DNA of 24,000 nucleotides from positions 32,615-56,614 of the forward strand of contig JAEZJF010000020.1 in the NCBI GenBank assembly GCA_023415825.1, written 5' to 3'. The stretch is from Bacillota bacterium (GTDB lineage: Bacteria > Bacillota > Clostridia > DSM-8532). This document shows positions 10,732 to 18,206 of this stretch, in pieces. The notes under the pieces are model-generated. The model saw only the letters and a list, made by a program, of their open reading frames with translations. It was not told the origin of the DNA and made no database searches. The translations under genes and the position numbers were made by a program. The number at the start of each line of letters is the position of its first letter. Positions within the stretch are counted from its first letter, which is position 1.

Positions 10732-11415
10732 ATGAATACTAACGCACATGTCCTGATCGTGGATGATGATATTAATATCTGTGAGCTCATAAGAATTTAC
10801 CTTGAGAAAGATAATTTCAAGGTTTCTCTTTCCCATGATGGCAAGAAAGCTGTCGAGGTATTTAAGGAACAGGCTCCGGATATTGTTATTCTTGATATCA
10901 TGCTCCCAGGCATGGATGGCTGGCAGGTGTGCCGGGAGATTCGAAAGCTCAGCAGCATCCCCATTATTATGCTTTCAGCCAAGGATGAAACCTTTAACAA
11001 GGTTTTGGGGCTGGAGCTGGGGGCTGATGATTACATGGTAAAGCCTTTTGAGCCCAAAGAGCTGATCGCAAGAATTCGCGCTGTTCTAAGGCGCTATGAC
11101 CGCCATGATGAGCATCCCCAGCAGCTTGTTTTTCCTGGACTTGTTATAAATAAATCTGATTACACAGTCAAGCTTAACGGCAATGATCTTGAGCTTCCTC
11201 CAAAAGAACTGGAGCTTCTGTTCTTCCTTGCCTCCAATCCCAATAAGGTCTTTACCCGGGAGCAGCTTTTGGAGAATGTTTGGGGGTTTGACTTCTACGG
11301 AGATACAAGAACAGTGGATGTGCATGTCAAAAGGCTCCGGGAAAAATTCGAGGGAGAGTATAAATGGCAGATAAAAACAGTGTGGGGTGTCGGTTACAAG
11401 TTTGAGGTGAGATGA
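10732..11415 (+). CDS. OmpR/PhoB-family response regulator (receiver plus winged-helix domains)
   Basis: HVLIVDDD, the phospho-acceptor context VILDIMLPGMDG, then KPF, and a C-terminal trans_reg_C segment (TVDVHVKRLREKF ... GVGYKF). The start was trimmed to ATG 10732. Confidence 0.9.
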   Translation: MNTNAHVLIVDDDINICELIRIYLEKDNFKVSLSHDGKKAVEVFKEQAPDIVILDIMLPGMDGWQVCREIRKLSSIPIIMLSAKDETFNKVLGLELGADDYMVKPFEPKELIARIRAVLRRYDRHDEHPQQLVFPGLVINKSDYTVKLNGNDLELPPKELELLFFLASNPNKVFTREQLLENVWGFDFYGDTRTVDVHVKRLREKFEGEYKWQIKTVWGVGYKFEVR

Positions 11416-12896
11416 TGATCAGAACAATGTTCGGAAAGATTCTTACAATTATATTATTAGTTCTCATCATCAGCTTTACCGTAACAGGCGTTCTCATGAA
11501 TGCCGGTATTCGCGAAATGGTCTCGGATCAAAAGGCTCAGCAGCTAAAGACGACTTCTGAAAAAGTTATAACGGCTCTGGAGGCCTATCTGAACAATAGT
11601 CAGTTTGGGAATGACATACTTTTTAAAAGCTTTCTTCAAACCCTGGCCTCCAACACCGATAGCCTTATTTGGATTGTTCGGAATGACGGAACCATTCTTC
11701 TCTATTCAAGTATTCCTCATTTCCTAAATGACAAGCTGACGACCTCGGAGGAAGGATGGCCGCGTCTTCCTGATGAACGGCAATATGGGAATAGGCTTAA
11801 AGGCAAGAACAAGACGGGAGATTTCTACGGCCTTTTTGCAGGCACGGGGGTTGACTGGCTTACAGTAAGCCAGCCCTTTGAATTAGATCATATTTCTCCT
11901 TATGATATTACGGTTGAGGGCTCTATTCTTATCCATTCTCAAATTCCAGCCATCAATAGAACCAAAACCTCCATATTGTTTATTTTCCTTGTGTCAGGAG
12001 CAGTGGGTGCCATCATTGCCCTGTTCTTTGTTACGCTTCTCACCCGCTATACGGTAAAACCGCTTAATCAGATGAAACTGGCTGCTCGACGTGTGGCATC
12101 TGGTGAATTTACACAGAGGATTGCCGTACGGGGAAAGGATGAGATAGCCGATCTTTCTGAAAGCTTTAACAGCATGGTGGTGGCCCTGGAGAACCTGGAG
12201 CAGATGCGCCGGGACTTTATCGGGAATGTAAGCCATGAGCTTCGCACACCCATTACAACAATCAAAGGCTTCATTGAAGGAATATTGGATGGTGTCATTC
12301 CTCCCGAGCGTCAAGAGGGATATTTATTGATAGTACGAGACGAGGTTCGGCGTATGCAGAATCTTGTCAATGATCTCTTGGATCTCGCCAAAATGCAGGG
12401 GGGAGAGGTCACTCTTAACCAATCTGATTTTGACATGAATGAATTGATTCGTCGCTGCGTCATTGGCCTTCAGCAGATGCTGGTGGAAAAAAACCTGGAA
12501 TTCAAAGCTGATTTTGAGACTGAGAGAATGTTTGTTCATGCAGATCGGGAAGCTATACAGAGGGTCATTATCAATTTGTTCCATAATGCAGTCAAGTTTA
12601 CCTCTCAAGGTGGCGAGATACGCGTCAGGACATATGTAGAAAAGGAAAAAGCATATATATCGGTAGAAGATACTGGAAAAGGTATATCCAAGGCTGAGCT
12701 GCCCTACATTTTTGAAAGATTTTACAAGGCAGATAAATCCAGAAGTATTGATCGGACAGGTCTTGGCCTGGGCCTTGCCATCGCGCGGAATATCATCGTT
12801 TCCCACAATGAAACCATAAAAGCGGAAAGTGAGGAAGGTTGTGGCGCGCGATTCATTTTTACCCTGCGTAGCGCACCTAAGGTTGAGTCATACTAA
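11412..12896 (+). CDS. Sensor histidine kinase (2 TM, extracytoplasmic loop of about 150 aa, HAMP, HisKA, HATPase_c)
   Basis: H-box SHELRTP, N-box NLFHNAVKFT and G-box GLGLGLAIARNI. The start ATG (11412 or 11415) overlaps the regulator stop codon (ATGATGA). Confidence 0.9.
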   Translation: MMIRTMFGKILTIILLVLIISFTVTGVLMNAGIREMVSDQKAQQLKTTSEKVITALEAYLNNSQFGNDILFKSFLQTLASNTDSLIWIVRNDGTILLYSSIPHFLNDKLTTSEEGWPRLPDERQYGNRLKGKNKTGDFYGLFAGTGVDWLTVSQPFELDHISPYDITVEGSILIHSQIPAINRTKTSILFIFLVSGAVGAIIALFFVTLLTRYTVKPLNQMKLAARRVASGEFTQRIAVRGKDEIADLSESFNSMVVALENLEQMRRDFIGNVSHELRTPITTIKGFIEGILDGVIPPERQEGYLLIVRDEVRRMQNLVNDLLDLAKMQGGEVTLNQSDFDMNELIRRCVIGLQQMLVEKNLEFKADFETERMFVHADREAIQRVIINLFHNAVKFTSQGGEIRVRTYVEKEKAYISVEDTGKGISKAELPYIFERFYKADKSRSIDRTGLGLGLAIARNIIVSHNETIKAESEEGCGARFIFTLRSAPKVESY

Positions 12897-12979
12897 AGTT
12901 AACATTTTATTCATACCTTCGTCAAAAATCGAAGCTATAATAAGACTCATCAAGGATCATGAAGGAAGGAGACTGTAAT

Positions 12980-14470
12980 ATGGATGAGTTTAATAAGGAA
13001 AACAACCAAAATAACGATAAAGAAGACAATAGCTGGGGGTTCACTCCTAGTTTTAACCCCGAGAACCATGACTATTCATCGGATGAAAAGACAAACGATA
13101 AAAGCACCGAGTCTCAAGGTTCTGAGGCCCCGCCGGAAATCTCCGATTTCGTTGGCGGGTCAAGTTCTTATAACGAGAGCAAGCCCGAGTTTCATTCAGG
13201 TTCTTACAATAGACCCAATGATTCGGAAGATCTTAAAACTTCCCAGTTTTACAACGAAAGCTATAAAAAGCCCGCAAAGGGAAGGCTAAAGGGGCTTCTT
13301 GTCCCAATGCTCATTGTTGCACTTTTGAGCTCTCTTCTGACAGGTGGTATTGTGGGGGCCTATTTTACCTTTGGAATGCCTCAAAACTATAACGGAGGTA
13401 AGGGCTATAAGAACAATCTGGTCAATGAAAATGGGGGTATTAAGCAGATTGAGATTGTGGATAAAACTACCGCTGCCTCAGCTGAACAGGCTGTGGCTGA
13501 AAAGGTCGGTATCTCAATTGTTGGCATCAATGTGACCTTTGAATACAGTGATATGTTCTTTGGTACAACCAAAAGCCAGGGGCAGGGGTCCGGGATTATT
13601 TATCGAAATGACGGCTATATTATAACCAATAATCATGTTATTGAGAATGCCATGCTGGGAACAAACGGTAATAAAGTATCTCCCGGCTCCAAAATTGAAG
13701 TTATTCTGCCAAACCAGGTGGATAAGCCTTATGAGGCCACTGTTGTCGGTCGTGATTCAAAAACCGATATTGCCATTCTAAAAATAAATGCTTCAGAGCT
13801 TCCTGCTGCAGACTTTGCCGATTCCGACCAGGTTAAAGTCGGAGAGAAGGCCATCGCTATCGGAAACCCTGCAGGGCTTGAATTTATGGGATCGGTAACC
13901 TCGGGTATTATAAGCGGACTAAATCGAAAAATAGAGTTCGATAACGGTAAAAGCATGCGGCTTATTCAAACCGATGCGGCTATCAACCCGGGGAATAGCG
14001 GCGGTGCCCTTCTGAATTCAAAAGGTGAGGTTATAGGCATCAACACTTCAAAAATCGGTGGAGAGGGCTATGAAGGACTGGGATTCGCCATTCCCTCCAA
14101 CCATGCTAAAGAAATTGCTGAGAGCCTGATTGAAAGCGGGTATGTTAAAGGCAGACCACAGCTTGGGATTAGCGTTAATACAAGTTTTAATAAAGAAATA
14201 GCTGATAAAAACAAAGTTCCCGAAGGTATTCTGGTAGCTGAAGTTACACCTTTGAGCGGTGCGTTTAAAGCAGGCATACAAGCCGGTGACATCATTACCA
14301 AGTTTAATGGTGTTGATATTAAAAGCTTTGAAGCTCTCGAAACTGAAAAGAATAAATTCAAAGCAGGAGATAAGGTGGAAATAACTCTTTATAGGATACC
14401 TAACAATGGGCCTGCCGACGAGGGCGTCTACAGAACTGTTGAAGTAACATTGGGTGAGGATACTCAATAG
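12980..14470 (+). CDS. htrA: HtrA/DegP-family membrane-anchored serine protease (S1C trypsin-like domain plus PDZ) with a low-complexity N-terminal extension of about 100 aa
   Basis: Catalytic contexts TNNHV (His), DIAILK (Asp) and GNSGGAL (Ser), followed by a C-terminal PDZ (GILVAEVTPLSGAFKAGIQAGDIITKFNG). There is a single TM, LLVPMLIVALLSSLLTGGIVGAYF. ATG 12980 lies 7 nt after GGAGA. No terminator separates it from the kinase gene. Confidence 0.9.
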   Translation: MDEFNKENNQNNDKEDNSWGFTPSFNPENHDYSSDEKTNDKSTESQGSEAPPEISDFVGGSSSYNESKPEFHSGSYNRPNDSEDLKTSQFYNESYKKPAKGRLKGLLVPMLIVALLSSLLTGGIVGAYFTFGMPQNYNGGKGYKNNLVNENGGIKQIEIVDKTTAASAEQAVAEKVGISIVGINVTFEYSDMFFGTTKSQGQGSGIIYRNDGYIITNNHVIENAMLGTNGNKVSPGSKIEVILPNQVDKPYEATVVGRDSKTDIAILKINASELPAADFADSDQVKVGEKAIAIGNPAGLEFMGSVTSGIISGLNRKIEFDNGKSMRLIQTDAAINPGNSGGALLNSKGEVIGINTSKIGGEGYEGLGFAIPSNHAKEIAESLIESGYVKGRPQLGISVNTSFNKEIADKNKVPEGILVAEVTPLSGAFKAGIQAGDIITKFNGVDIKSFEALETEKNKFKAGDKVEITLYRIPNNGPADEGVYRTVEVTLGEDTQ

Positions 14471-14522
14471 AATCTTTAATTACAATAAATAATATGTATA
14501 ACAAATACCAATAATTTTCCAT

Positions 14523-14559
14523 AAAAAAAGCTGTCATACAATTTCTGACAGCTTTTTTT
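14523..14559 (+). terminator. Rho-independent terminator after htrA
   Basis: AAAAAAAGCTGTCA (14523-14536), a 10-nt loop, then TGACAGCTTTTTTT (14547-14559). Confidence 0.8.
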
Positions 14560-14563
14560 GCAT

Positions 14564-14637
14564 GTTTACCGCAGTTATTACATTAAAAACCGCAGTTATT
14601 ACATTTCGCGTCATAAGCCTCAATTTTTTGATATAGT
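14564..14637 (+). promoter_or_regulatory. LytTR/AgrA-type operator (two direct repeats at 21-bp phasing) plus a -10 hexamer. An activator-dependent promoter, here called P-orphan.
   Basis: ACCGCAGTTATTACATT occurs at 14568-14584 and again at 14589-14605. The GCAGTTATT core resembles the AgrA half-site ACAGTTAAG, and 9 bp plus a 12-bp spacer gives the 21-bp period. TATAGT at 14632-14637 lies 26 nt after the second repeat. There is no recognisable -35. Confidence 0.7.
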
Positions 14638-14643
14638 AAAAAC

Positions 14644-14866
14644 AGATTTAAAACTCCTCCAGCCACCCTAGAGCTGCTCATTTTATAATCCCTGTACCAA
14701 TTATAAAATGAGCAATGCGTTGGATAATGGAGCATAAAGACAAAATGAAGGAAGGCTATAGGTCCCCCCATATGAAGCATTCTTAATTTTGAGACTTTAA
14801 TGGCCTTATCACGCAGTAATCCACTATTATTGAAAAAGCACCGTGCCTGCACGGTGCTTTTTCAAT
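14644..14866 (+). ncRNA. Candidate agr/LytTR-dependent small RNA of about 220 nt. A very short peptide gene is an alternative. The 5' end is predicted, not observed.
   Basis: It is bounded by P-orphan and a strong terminator. The longest ATG ORFs are 9-23 aa and lack an RBS. It contains CTCCTCC (14654-14660), a perfect 12-bp hairpin TCATTTTATAAT/ATTATAAAATGA (14678-14711) with a loop beginning CCC, and a CCCCCC run (14764-14769). Confidence 0.4.
14829..14866 (+). terminator. Strong rho-independent terminator (symmetrical A/T tracts) ending the orphan transcript
   Basis: ATTGAAAAAGCACCGTGC (14829-14846) pairs with GCACGGTGCTTTTTCAAT (14849-14866). Confidence 0.8.
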
Positions 14867-14978
14867 AGTATGGGTGAAACTTGAGGTGTGTTCTTTCCCC
14901 TACGTACCTCTGGATTTTTTATGACAAAAGCCGCCTAATATAGGTTTAATATTACCAAATATACCAATTATATAGTGG

Positions 14979-15052
14979 GTTTACCGCAGTTATTACATTT
15001 CAAGCCGCAGTTATTACATTTCGCGTTTTTTCTTGTTGTTTTTTGCTATACT
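14979..15052 (+). promoter_or_regulatory. Second copy of the LytTR/AgrA-type operator plus a -10 hexamer. Autoinducible promoter of agrBD (P2-like).
   Basis: ACCGCAGTTATTACATT at 14983-14999 and GCCGCAGTTATTACATT at 15004-15020, again with a 21-bp period. TATACT at 15047-15052 lies 26 nt after the second repeat. The -35 is poor. The agrB ATG is 28 nt downstream of the -10. Confidence 0.75.
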
Positions 15053-15079
15053 GAAGCGGAAGAAAAGGGGGGCAAGATC

Positions 15080-15664
15080 ATGCTTCAGCAGGTTGCCAGT
15101 GATTTGACAGAGCTCCTCCTTAAGAAGGAGATTGTCAAGGAGCAAGATAAAGAAATCTATACTTATGGCTTTGAGGCTATGTTTTCTACAATCATCAATA
15201 CCATCCTCGTTTTGACTATAGGTATACTGGCAGGGACACTTCTTGAAACCTTGATTTATCTGATATGTTTTGCTCTGCTTAGAGTTTATTGTGGTGGATA
15301 TCATGCCAAAACTCATGTGGGCTGCATACTAATGTTTGTTGGGCTTTACGGATCGGCTATGTTTATTCCTCATCTCATACCTGCACAGTACAATGGCTTG
15401 TTATCCATAGTCATTGGCGGTATTTCTCTTACGGCGATATTTCTGTATGCACCTATTGAGCATCAAAACAGACCGTTTGTAGGAAACGAGTATAAGACCT
15501 TTCGTAAGCTTGCCCGAATTATTGTGCTTTTAGAAGCCGCACTTATTGTTTTCATTTCAGCCATCTATCAAAATTTCTCGAAAATAGCCTTGATTATCTC
15601 AATGGCCATGATTAGTGTTGTGTTCATATTGGCTTTAGCCAAAATTATAGAAAGAAAGAGGTGA
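15080..15664 (+). CDS. agrB: AgrB-family membrane endopeptidase that processes the autoinducing peptide (AIP) precursor, 194 aa
   Basis: A polytopic protein with the AgrB signature region LLRVYCGGYHAKTHVGC, which carries the catalytic His and Cys contexts. ATG 15080 follows AAAAGGGGGG. The track extension from 14975 runs through the operator repeats and was rejected. Confidence 0.9.
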   Translation: MLQQVASDLTELLLKKEIVKEQDKEIYTYGFEAMFSTIINTILVLTIGILAGTLLETLIYLICFALLRVYCGGYHAKTHVGCILMFVGLYGSAMFIPHLIPAQYNGLLSIVIGGISLTAIFLYAPIEHQNRPFVGNEYKTFRKLARIIVLLEAALIVFISAIYQNFSKIALIISMAMISVVFILALAKIIERKR

Positions 15665-15687
15665 ATCATGTGATTAGAGGTTTTGCA

Positions 15688-15813
15688 ATGTTTCTGGGTA
15701 AGCTTCTGGCAGCAATAGCATTCTCAACAGCCTTCTTAAGTAACTTCACAAGCTGTGTCATATTCGTGAATCAGCCTCAGATGCCTGAGAAAGTAAGAAT
15801 GCTCAAAAAATGA
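15688..15813 (+). CDS. agrD: AgrD-like AIP precursor, 41 aa (47 aa if it starts at GTG 15670). It is below the ORF-track size cut-off.
   Basis: My translation is MFLGKLLAAIAFSTAFLSNFTSCVIFVNQPQMPEKVRMLKK. It has an amphipathic leader, a Cys (15754-15756) followed by four residues (CVIFV), then an N-Q-P-x-x-P-E-K tail like the recognition tail of clostridial AgrD. AGAGG lies 7 nt upstream of the ATG, and the gene starts 24 nt after agrB. Confidence 0.75.
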   Translation: MFLGKLLAAIAFSTAFLSNFTSCVIFVNQPQMPEKVRMLKK

Positions 15814-15936: not shown

Positions 15937-16056
15937 ATATAGAGAATGCCTACCAACAGGGTTACCGAAGCGTAAATTTGCTTTCTTTTTTTCTCAATAC
16001 ATAGAAGCAGATAAGTAATACAATAATCCCCCCAAAAAAGAAAGTGAGGAAAGCAA

Positions 16057-16086
16057 TTGAAAAAACATAGAAAATTCTGGTATGAT
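16057..16086 (+). promoter_or_regulatory. Putative sigma-A promoter (extended -10) for the LytTR regulator and kinase operon
   Basis: TTGAAA (16057-16062), an 18-nt spacer ending in TGg, then TATGAT (16081-16086). It lies about 80 nt upstream of ATG 16168. No LytTR repeats are seen here. Confidence 0.4.
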
Positions 16087-16167
16087 GATTTAGCCAAGAG
16101 TTTTTTTAACGGGCACAAAAATAGAAAAAATGAGCTGAATTTGATTCAATTACTTTCGGGGGAGAAT

Positions 16168-16896
16168 ATGCAGATTGCAGTTTGCGACGATGAAAAGGTC
16201 TTTTTAGATCTTTTTTCAGGTTATATTAAAAACTGTATGGCAACTTGTGAAGAGTACAATAATGAAGTTACCATTGATGCATACTCCTCGGGAGAACTGC
16301 TGTTAGAGGCCTATAATCAAGGACAGACCTATGATATTATTTTCCTTGATATCAGAATGGACGGGCTCAATGGTTTTGATACGGCAAAAATGATAAGAGA
16401 ACTTGACAGCAGGACCATGATTGTCTTTATTACCTCATTATCAGATTATATTTTCAACAGCTTTGAATACCGGCCCTTTTGGTTCCTGATAAAGCCTGTT
16501 TCCGAGGAGAAGTTCAGGTATGTATTCTTTAAAGCACTAACCGAACTTAAGCATATAAGGACAAGGGAATTTTCCTTCTTTACCAGAGAGCATGGGCTGC
16601 TAAGCTTGGAAATCAGCAAAATTTGCTATTTGGAAAGTGTACTGAGAAGAATCATTATTCAAACAACTATGGAGCAATATACTTATTATGCCAATATTTC
16701 ATCAGAAGAAGAAAAGCTTATAAAGTACGATTTCGTAAGGATTCACAAGGGGTACCTTGTGAATATGGCATACATACAAAGAATCAACAAAAACAATGTT
16801 GTCTTGAAAAACAGTGTGGTGCTCCCCTTGAGCGAACACCGCTATAAAGCTGTATTTGATAGCTTTACTAGTTATCTTGCGAGGTGCTCGGTATGA
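16168..16896 (+). CDS. agrA: LytTR-family response regulator (AgrA-like), 242 aa
   Basis: Receiver domain MQIAVCDDE ... IIFLDIRMDGLNG, and a C-terminal LytTR DNA-binding domain (ICYLES ... FVRIHKGYLVNMAYI). ATG 16168 follows GGGGGAG. The in-frame 37-codon track extension was rejected. Confidence 0.9.
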   Translation: MQIAVCDDEKVFLDLFSGYIKNCMATCEEYNNEVTIDAYSSGELLLEAYNQGQTYDIIFLDIRMDGLNGFDTAKMIRELDSRTMIVFITSLSDYIFNSFEYRPFWFLIKPVSEEKFRYVFFKALTELKHIRTREFSFFTREHGLLSLEISKICYLESVLRRIIIQTTMEQYTYYANISSEEEKLIKYDFVRIHKGYLVNMAYIQRINKNNVVLKNSVVLPLSEHRYKAVFDSFTSYLARCSV

Positions 16897-18206
16897 TACA
16901 TAGCTTTGGTTGGTTATCGGTTGAGGCGGGAACATCCCTGTTTGAAATCATACTCATTCTAACATTTTTAAATGGATTTCTTACCGTTAAAGAAATGTCG
17001 GTAGTAAAAAAAACAATTATATTCGTCGGAGCATATGTCATTTTATTTTTTGGAAGTACCTTCTTGTTTGATATTCCCGGCGCTCTTCTGATCAATTTTT
17101 TCACTGTCACTATGATCCTTTCATTTACTTTATACACGGGAAAGCTCACAAACCACTTCTTCTCGAGTATACTATTACTAGCCATGCTTGCTGTGGTGGA
17201 GCTTATAGCCATGTGCATAATTGTTATAAGCCTGAATATAGACGCCGCCAGAATTCAAGCTGAACCCCTCCTCAGATTTATCTGCGTTTTATTAAAAAAT
17301 ATTCTTTCCTTTGCCATCATTAAGCTTATCTGCAATTTCAGAAGATCTAATGTCAGAGAAGTGGGACGTGTCTATTTTGCTTTTCTCCTGGTCGTTCCTA
17401 TTATTTGTGTGGTTGTCACGCTTTTGATACTGAATCTTATTCTATCCTATGAGATAATGGACTTATCCATCTTCCTGGCAGCTTTTTTAGGATTAATGTA
17501 TGTTAATGCCATTGTTTTTGCCATCTTTGAAGGCCTGATGCGTCAAATGGACAAGGAGCATAGATATAAAATGATTGAAAAGCAATTGGAATTGCAGCTC
17601 AATCACTATAATAAATTAGCTGAGAACCGAGCAATGCTTTCGGAAGTCCTTCATGATTTTAAGAACCATCTCAACTGCATCTACAATCTTTATAAGTATA
17701 ATAATAGTCAGGACCTGGGCCGATATATAGAAAATCTCATTAATGTGTCCGAGACCGAAAAAGTGATCGATACAGGGAACCCTGTTATAGATGCCCTACT
17801 TAATGATAAATACTCTATAAGCCAAAAAATAGGAATTGATTTTAGAAAAGAGCTTAATCTACCTTCAAATCTTAAGATTGCGCCTACAGATATCTGTGCA
17901 ATTCTCGGAAATTCTCTTGATAATGCCATTGAAGCCTGCAAACGCATAAAGAACAGTGCCATAAGAAGGGAAATAGCCCTATCAATGACCTATCGTGATT
18001 CCTATCTCATCATAGTTGTTGTCAATACAATTGATCAGGTTCCTCTAAAGGAGGGTAAGTTCTTTCGTTCATCGAAGCCTTCTCCGGAATTACATGGCTT
18101 GGGTATGCACAGCATAGAAAGAACTGTAAAGAAATATGCCGGCAATATGGTTGTAAAATGTGATGAAGGACTTTTTAAGCTGGAAATCGTCATGTCGACA
18201 GCCTAA
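16893..18206 (+). CDS. agrC: AgrC-like (HPK10, GHKL) membrane sensor histidine kinase, about 437 aa
   Basis: The N-terminal half has about 6 TM helices. H-box LHDFKNHLNCI, N-box LGNSLDNAIEA and G-box HGLGMHSIERTV. The ATG at 16893 overlaps the regulator stop (ATGA). Confidence 0.85.
   Translation: MIHSFGWLSVEAGTSLFEIILILTFLNGFLTVKEMSVVKKTIIFVGAYVILFFGSTFLFDIPGALLINFFTVTMILSFTLYTGKLTNHFFSSILLLAMLAVVELIAMCIIVISLNIDAARIQAEPLLRFICVLLKNILSFAIIKLICNFRRSNVREVGRVYFAFLLVVPIICVVVTLLILNLILSYEIMDLSIFLAAFLGLMYVNAIVFAIFEGLMRQMDKEHRYKMIEKQLELQLNHYNKLAENRAMLSEVLHDFKNHLNCIYNLYKYNNSQDLGRYIENLINVSETEKVIDTGNPVIDALLNDKYSISQKIGIDFRKELNLPSNLKIAPTDICAILGNSLDNAIEACKRIKNSAIRREIALSMTYRDSYLIIVVVNTIDQVPLKEGKFFRSSKPSPELHGLGMHSIERTVKKYAGNMVVKCDEGLFKLEIVMSTA

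Follow-up and report, generated by a model that had tools for sequence, protein, structure and literature searches.

The stretch of DNA examined here, which we call the window, comprises 24,000 nucleotides (nt) from a Bacillota bacterium of the Clostridia (GTDB lineage DSM-8532; assembly GCA_023415825.1, contig JAEZJF010000020.1, positions 32,615 to 56,614 of the forward strand). It carries an agr-type locus in which agrB and agrD, predicted from their family matches to make an autoinducing peptide, are followed by the genes for a LytTR response regulator and a GHKL histidine kinase. Between the terminator of the upstream htrA gene and agrB there lies, co-oriented with agrBD, a LytTR-type operator with its own -10 hexamer, and downstream of this promoter a stretch of about 223-224 nt, poor in open reading frames (ORFs), that ends in an intrinsic terminator (Table 1). 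In staphylococci, AgrA drives RNAIII, and the C-rich loops of RNAIII pair with Shine-Dalgarno regions; a preliminary description of the window, made from its letters alone, had proposed an analogous small RNA (sRNA) at this place. As far as sequence comparison can tell, the unit is a conserved non-coding transcription unit under LytTR-operator control and belongs to an undescribed RNA family, which would work like the AgrA-, VirR- or RgaR-driven sRNAs while standing outside them by sequence. We consider it probable, with a good deal of room left for doubt, that its product is a LytTR-activated, trans-acting regulatory RNA with C-rich seeds of the anti-Shine-Dalgarno type, a functional analogue of RNAIII.

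Synteny of the unit in related loci

Relatives of the locus (numbered with the prefix L) were collected through a search for AgrB in species-representative genomes, which gave six close loci (L001-L006), through a scan of metagenomes for a degenerate form of the operator, which gave 19 loci (L031-L049), and through a look-up of AgrB homologues, which added L056. After deduplication, the RNA was delimited in 20 distinct loci including the window, with L056 as the 21st; L032 and L042 nearly duplicate L004 and L035, so that about 19 clearly different sequences stand among the 20. The loci come from digester and fermenter metagenomes and metagenome-assembled genomes (MAGs) of uncultured hosts. A Logan contig, compared in its AgrB product and in 610 nt of DNA upstream, proved identical to the window there, and the AgrB of the window is 92% identical to that of a MAG labelled 'Bacillota bacterium'.

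One gene order, namely kinase, htrA, htrA terminator, operator, -10 hexamer, non-coding stretch, 3' hairpin, agrB, agrD, LytTR regulator and GHKL kinase, was found in all 19 further distinct loci, at AgrB identities to the window of 40-92%. The unit thus turned up at the same place beside agrB in every one of these related loci, in which the preliminary description had suggested looking for it. The length of the RNA is likewise kept, being 200-233 nt in 18 of the 20 loci, with 76 nt in L005 and 191 nt in L041 as the exceptions. The 76-nt RNA (L005:3753-3828) has a C7 run in its 5' tail and a GC-rich hairpin, in a locus where the second operator is present as well, and the RNA of L041 (L041:11367-11557, - strand) has the CUGUACC loop described below and no C-run. 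Beyond these loci, the agr loci of Ruminococcus, Lachnospiraceae, Lacrimispora and Anaerocolumna (L007-L029) possess direct repeats right before agrB and no C-run RNA, and the element is therefore specific to the lineage with htrA-agr synteny. As an observation apart, the Lacrimispora-type loci (L014, L020, L022, L024-L028) show a direct repeat (A/T)AATTTTGGCAC(T/-)C with 22-bp spacing about 255 nt upstream of agrB, a different candidate operator whose TGGCAC core recalls the sigma-54 -24 element.

Operator and promoter in front of the RNA

The repeats of the operator have a period of 21 bp (ACCGCAGTTATTACATT at 14568-14584 and 14589-14605), and the whole 48-nt block recurs as a direct repeat with 94% identity in front of agrBD (14979-15026). 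The exact 15-mer CCGCAGTTATTACAT has four matches in the window, all inside the two operators, while the chance expectation amounts to 0.63 when up to three mismatches are allowed. Both -10 hexamers, TATAGT of the RNA and TATACT of agrBD (15047-15052), lie 26 nt past the second box of their own operator. The copy of the agrBD operator that had been claimed between the htrA terminator and the agrBD promoter is thus present, in the same orientation and 26 nt from TATAGT. Among the 20 loci, the distance from the -10 hexamer to the end of the operator pattern is a constant 27-28 nt, and the agrBD copy of the window shares it. A generic sigma-70 scan found a complete -35/-10 promoter at neither of the two operator-linked -10 hexamers; a good -10 without a usable -35 is what would be expected of an activator-dependent promoter.

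With a start near 14645, the G of the first CAGTT core (14574) is placed at about -71 and that of the second (14595) at about -50. In promoters of the VirR/RgaR type, a 34-nt pair of direct repeats stands directly upstream of the -35 position (PMC2838878), and in the RgaR-dependent PspoZ the critical Gs are at -51 and -72 (PMC10602386). The promoter of the window, with its direct repeats phased at about 21 bp and its fixed distance to the -10 hexamer, fits this geometry. An operator of the same kind and spacing precedes agrBD in this genome, a LytTR regulator and a kinase are encoded nearby, and the regulator-kinase pair is syntenic in all relatives; this regulator presumably binds both operators.

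The history of the two operators is likely the reverse of what the words 'orphan' and 'second copy' in the preliminary description implied. The second operator is found in the window, L001, L002 and L005 only, and in the other 16 of the 20 loci the operator of the RNA is the sole one at the agr locus; for this reason, the operator of the RNA looks ancestral and the agrBD copy of the window derived. Six look-ups for extra relatives returned four short contigs or contig pairs (L050, L051, L052 and L053/L054), one contig with 15 nt before agrB (L055) and, with the RNA, L056 only. The short Logan contigs start at or inside an operator beside agrB (L050:1-100, L051:1-83, L052:1-70, L053:1-97; AgrB 58-81% identical), as expected from an assembly break at a repeated operator, so that a second operator is probably present in L050-L053. 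On this hint, loci with two operators may be common in the sub-clade of the window.

A single operator match fell outside an agr locus (L044:3773-4859), where a direct-repeat operator with TATACT precedes two small ORFs of 160 and 144 amino acids without Pfam match, beside a tyrosine integrase. The first of these ORFs has a signal-peptide-like N-terminus, and the pair may be a mobile member of the regulon.

Structure and conservation of the RNA

The computed fold of the 223-nt RNA of the window has an energy of -66.7 kcal/mol (z = -5.3 relative to dinucleotide shuffles), and its 3' end is predicted at about 14866. The two C-rich motifs that had been claimed are both where they were placed: CTCCTCC (CUCCUCC in the RNA) occupies 14654-14660 of the single-stranded 5' tail, and the C6 run lies at 14764-14769. 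The CCUCC within the 5' tail is perfectly complementary to GGAGG, the core of the Shine-Dalgarno sequence; the tail is identical in L001 (32/32) and has likes in L002, L047, L056 and L005 (CCUCC, CCACCCU). The perfect hairpin that had been described is present as well, although its 12 bp were an understatement of the 15 perfect pairs seen, and the strong terminator expected after some 220 nt is evident from the near-perfect complementarity of its arms and the T-run behind them.

Table 1. Coordinates of the RNA unit and of its neighbours in the window.
Feature	Position	Strand	Remarks
LytTR-type operator	14564-14611	+	two direct repeats CCGCAGTTATTACAT, 14569-14583 and 14590-14604, 21 bp apart
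-10 hexamer TATAGT	14632-14637	+	no good -35; predicted start about 14644-14645
RNA 5' tail	14643-14674	+	single-stranded, C/U-rich, CUCCUCCAGCCACCCUAG; mean unpaired probability 0.70
Hairpin 1	14675-14714	+	15 perfect pairs (14675-14689 with 14700-14714), loop CCCTGTACCA (RNA: CCCUGUACCA)
Central domain	14722-14808	+	long imperfect hairpin with C6 apical loop, closed by the helix GAUAAUG with C(C/A)UUAUC
Intrinsic terminator	14825-14870	+	arms 14825-14846 and 14849-14870, 22 nt, 95% complementary, then TTTTT
Second operator and -10 TATACT	14979-15052	+	predicted to drive agrBD
htrA terminator	14523-14559	+	14 perfect pairs, then T-run; upstream boundary of the RNA unit
HAMP/HisKA kinase	11412-12896		upstream
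HtrA-type protease (htrA)	12959-14470		upstream, own terminator
agrB	15080-15664	+	Pfam AgrB, E = 2.7e-42
agrD	15670-15813	+	GTG start; TIGR04223, 27.1 bits against a cutoff of 19
LytTR response regulator	16168-16896	+	Pfam Response_reg and LytTR
GHKL histidine kinase	16884-18206	+	HATPase_c_5

The C-run is the only near-invariant block in an alignment of 19 sequences. In single-sequence partition-function folds, 19 of the 20 RNAs present it in the loop at the tip of a long hairpin, with a mean unpaired probability of 0.67-1.00, and runs of six or more C are otherwise rare (0.07 per kb per strand). The sequences fall into two clades, which are too divergent for alignment of the whole family, and MAFFT with RNAalifold therefore returned the terminator only, or nothing (alignments A1 and A4); clade-wise alignments worked. 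In clade B (nine sequences, RNAalifold), a 20-pair hairpin capped by the C-loop and a 15-pair terminator emerged, some of the hairpin pairs with compensatory changes. Here 93% of the cells were paired, versus 35-45% with the partners slid, and the covariation score (0.214 versus 0.145) was reached by none of 500 shuffles. In clade A, to which the window belongs, the terminator helix shows compensatory changes in 10 of its 16 pairs (six in the five-sequence set), and the closing helix around the C-hairpin is invariant in five sequences. The loop motif (C/U)UGUACC of hairpin 1 is kept and unpaired in all eight clade A RNAs examined (8/8), on stems whose sequences are unrelated. It should be added that this loop motif contains the palindrome GUAC, which could serve in loop-loop pairing of two RNA molecules, as a second seed or as a protein-binding site.

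Conservation is also uneven along the locus in the closest relatives. Against L001, the body of the RNA is identical at 180 of 184 positions and the flanking spacers at 183 of 203. Against L002, the segments of the RNA are 52-82% identical, versus 37% for the spacer from the terminator to the second operator; operator 2 is 90% identical, and the boxes of operator 1 are unchanged in the alignment, an insertion in L002 distorting the percentage for operator 1.

As to the unity of the family, an nhmmer profile of clade B matched no clade A RNA, and what the clade B covariance model (R1) found in the window was generic terminators only. The best matches of the model on the right interval were weak (E 0.003-3), with L056 (0.003) and L047 (0.04) ahead of L004, L003, L002 and L031; L047 and L056 in turn align with the window via shared motif blocks. 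We therefore treat the window RNA and clade B as one presumptive family, the link being transitive via these intermediates and supported by synteny. Taken together, synteny in about 20 relatives, the looped C-run, the covarying stems and the lack of a conserved ORF bear out what had been claimed for the window, a separate non-coding unit behind a LytTR operator with exposed C-rich motifs.

Coding potential and relation to agrBD

The longest ORFs on the + strand of the unit encode 23 (14715-14786) and 22 (14800-14868) amino acids, and neither has a Shine-Dalgarno sequence, which agrees with the earlier statement that no ORF there has a ribosome-binding site. AgrA drives peptide genes directly in staphylococci, and these two ORFs, together with an 89-amino-acid ORF on the - strand, are what speaks for a small-peptide gene, for a toxin or a second signal, comparable to the delta-toxin gene in RNAIII or to the AgrA-driven psm genes. 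Nevertheless, comparison of the 20 RNAs for a conserved short ORF, which by the preliminary description would have made the unit a peptide gene, revealed no ORF common to them in position, length or sequence and none with a Shine-Dalgarno sequence. The C-run, moreover, changes in length from C6 in the window through C7 in L001, C8 in L003 and C9 in L032 to C10 in L004, which shifts any frame crossing it on both strands. In L001, with 94% identical DNA, C7 in place of C6 already frameshifts both the 23-amino-acid ORF and the 89-amino-acid antisense ORF, and the latter has no match in Pfam. Among the sequences compared, a peptide gene appears effectively refuted, and we give it a very small chance. 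Hardly any credence is left, either, for a non-functional by-product, that is, a duplicated promoter fragment firing into a hairpin-containing spacer. The 94% identity of the two operators is what a recent duplication would leave, but the operator of the RNA is the sole one in most loci, the unit keeps its place in all 19 further loci over the whole range of AgrB identity, its length and loop motifs are conserved and its stems covary, so that such a by-product is already contradicted by the conservation data.

Far more attention is due to the possibility that the RNA acts in cis, as a structured 5' leader or attenuator of agrBD into which transcription from the one autoinduced promoter would run and whose terminator would gate agrBD output. 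We regard this as unlikely to be the right account of the unit and yet as a serious contender. The C-rich loop may be the binding site of a factor or may itself mask the ribosome-binding site of agrB; the separately terminated copy of the window would then be either vestigial or a former leader set free by the duplication of the operator. What supports a leader comes largely from the relatives with a sole operator (L003, L004, L006, L031-L043, L047, L049, L056; e.g. L006:3617-4000). In 16 of the 20 loci, the spacer that leads from the 3' hairpin to agrB contains no operator (best match at most 13/26, the random level) and is short (60-160 nt in single-operator loci). Sigma-70-like promoters between terminator and agrB (L006, L039, L004) matched at chance level only. 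With neither an operator nor an above-chance promoter before agrBD, its autoinduction presumably needs read-through of the RNA. In two loci (L047:7346-7569, - strand, and L056:1222-1445), the 3' hairpin (TTTAGTAATAGCGTTG...CAACGCTATTACTAAA) lacks a U-tract, and the RNA there is probably the 5' untranslated region of agrBD and not a terminated transcript. The G6 run in the ribosome-binding site of agrB in the window (AAAAGGGGGGCAAGATCATG, 15067-15072) is the exact complement of the C6 loop, and a precedent for the layout exists in Clostridium perfringens, where the putative sRNA SR14 is located between VirR boxes and pfoA (PMC4877802). On the other hand, agrBD of the window, L001 and L002 has its own operator and promoter past a terminator of 17-22 bp, and precisely in these loci conservation is higher in the RNA, its promoter and its exposed motifs than in the spacers on either side; that the unit stays intact where agrBD has its own operator argues for a function independent of cis control of agrBD. 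Nor is any alternative anti-terminator pairing evident, and the G-rich ribosome-binding sites of agrB are not conserved. A leader is thus well supported for the single-operator relatives and weakened for the window. The two roles are compatible, leader-derived sRNAs that also act in trans being known, and a dual role as leader and trans RNA is plausible. Three layouts would thus occur in the family: the RNA as a 5' leader, the RNA as a terminated transcript that must be read through and, in the window, two independent operator-driven units.

Returning to the trans-acting RNA that we favour, several points weigh against it. Its position between the sole operator and agrBD in 16 of the 20 loci fits a leader equally well, and the two 3' hairpins without U-tract fit a leader, too. 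L041 lacks the C-run and L005 has only the 76-nt version, and no direct homology between the window and clade B was detected by nhmmer or by the covariance model. The transcription start, the 3' end and the dependence on the regulator are predictions. As for targets, none stood out from background when duplex energies of the three exposed motifs (5' tail, loop 1, C-loop) were computed with 19 translation-initiation regions of the window. The ribosome-binding site of the regulator gene (16158-16162) has a G5 run, and neither this nor the G6 run of agrB is conserved across the family, so that a feedback interaction with them would be possible only in the closest relatives. An 8-nt match of the RNA (UGAAGCAU) to the start region of agrB was dismissed by inspection, as its order relative to the G6 run is wrong for one duplex that also includes the C-loop.

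Proposed mechanism

On the model of a trans-acting RNA, AgrB would process AgrD into a secreted cyclic peptide which, at high cell density, would activate the GHKL kinase, and this in turn would phosphorylate the LytTR response regulator. The regulator would bind both 15-nt repeats (about -50 and -71), which, at a spacing of 21 bp, lie on the same helical face, and would recruit RNA polymerase to a promoter with a good -10 and no usable -35. The transcript, predicted to run on the + strand from about 14644 to 14866 (some 220 nt), would stop at the strong intrinsic terminator and would expose the 5' tail with CUCCUCC, loop 1 (CCCUGUACCA) and the apical C6 loop. These C-rich seeds would most likely pair in trans with G-rich ribosome-binding regions of target mRNAs and alter their translation or stability. 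In this way the RNA would convey the output of the agr-like system at the post-transcriptional level, a part played by RNAIII in staphylococci and by VR-RNA in C. perfringens. The promoter of the RNA would, in most relatives, also supply agrBD by read-through, and in the lineage of the window the second operator would have uncoupled the two units. Going one step further, it is tentatively conceivable, at a little short of even chances in our estimate, that the agr autoinduction promoter primarily makes the regulatory RNA and agrBD follows by read-through, so that the RNA would be, by ancestry, the first product of the system and also its chief output, an RNAIII-type effector of independent origin within a clostridial agr locus, and the window a later emancipation via operator duplication.

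Neighbouring genes

A hairpin equivalent to the htrA terminator stands at the same position in all relatives. The two-component kinase and the HtrA-family protease (11412-14470) are likewise always directly upstream of the RNA-agr module; the pair looks like a secretion- or envelope-stress module, and its linkage, held at kinase identities of 63-98%, suggests a functional connection. On the other side, agrD and the regulator gene are separated by 355 nt, in which a second C6 run (AATCCCCCCAAAAAAG, 16028-16033) shortly precedes the best sigma-70-like promoter of the region (16057-16086, TTGAAA-18-TATGAT with extended TG).

Known systems and significance

Rfam 15 gave no match in the 24 kb at gathering thresholds, and in 14500-15100, searched at E values up to 10, there was no RNAIII match, the sub-threshold matches being generic terminator look-alikes. 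RNAIII (RF00503) is nonetheless the nearest parallel in design. It is likewise driven by a LytTR regulator from tandem direct repeats with a CAGTT core directly beside agrBD(CA), is structured, ends in an intrinsic terminator and pairs through C-rich apical loops with Shine-Dalgarno regions (PMC12312760). The window RNA differs from it in having no match to it in sequence or structure in Rfam, in its length of about 220 nt against 514 nt and in the lack of an hld-like ORF, whereas RNAIII encodes delta-haemolysin; it is, furthermore, co-oriented with agrBD and upstream of it, whereas RNAIII is divergent, and in most relatives it shares its single promoter with agrBD.

Among clostridia, VR-RNA (vrr), VirT and VirU of C. 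perfringens are sRNAs from promoters with two VirR boxes (PMC4877802), and the VirSR system responds to the Agr peptide (PMC4877802, PMC2838878). They resemble the window RNA as regulatory RNAs from LytTR-type direct-repeat promoters in a clostridial host, and they are set apart from it by size, by context, not being adjacent to agrBD, and by the absence of an Rfam match. VR-RNA acts partly via cleavage of the colA 5' leader, as far as this is cited in PMC10602386, whereas the motif design of the window RNA is that of C-rich loops. In C. difficile, RgaR directly activates both agrB1D1 and the sRNA SpoZ (CD630_n00620) via VirR-like direct repeats, and the RgaSR system is not activated by AgrD1 (PMC10602386). 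There, too, one LytTR regulator drives the autoinducer genes and an sRNA, with the critical Gs within one position of those predicted for the window. SpoZ, however, has about 530-560 nt, is antisense to the small ORF CD16671 and lies away from agrB1D1, whereas the window RNA has about 220 nt, no antisense gene and a place at the locus itself. SR14, a short RNA that immediately follows a LytTR operator with its promoter and precedes the regulated gene, resembles the single-operator layout of most relatives; it is likened here by layout alone, being uncharacterised and followed by a toxin gene, not by agrBD.

The preliminary description had known of no equivalent for a clostridial-type agr locus. 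In this generality the statement does not stand, given vrr, virT, virU and SpoZ; it does hold for an RNA physically associated with a clostridial agr locus, and no clostridial RNA upstream of agrBD was described in the literature that our searches covered. A regulatory RNA is, as a rule, part of an Agr regulon (PMC10602386), and a primer of 2025 states that at clostridial agr loci such an associated RNA is absent (PMC12312760). The concept is therefore known from RNAIII, VR-RNA, VirT, VirU and SpoZ, while the RNA family and its tandem layout with agrBD, often behind a shared promoter, appear to be undescribed.

Peptide signalling of the agr type is widespread in Firmicutes, and the route from signal to target outside staphylococci is poorly understood. 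The present comparison yields a defined operator consensus and a seed for a covariance model, with which these MAGs can be annotated. If the proposed role is true, the RNA would be a concrete candidate for a quorum-sensing effector in an abundant group of uncultured digester clostridia, and it would represent a second, independent design of LytTR regulator and C-rich-loop RNA, informative on the convergent evolution of quorum-sensing outputs. The relatives would then display the stages from a 5' leader through a terminated RNA with read-through to an independent sRNA gene, a route of origin that is rarely documented. Such an RNA, in a family-level lineage of uncultured anaerobic-digester clostridia, would contradict the current textbook view, according to which no regulatory RNA is associated with the agr systems of clostridia.

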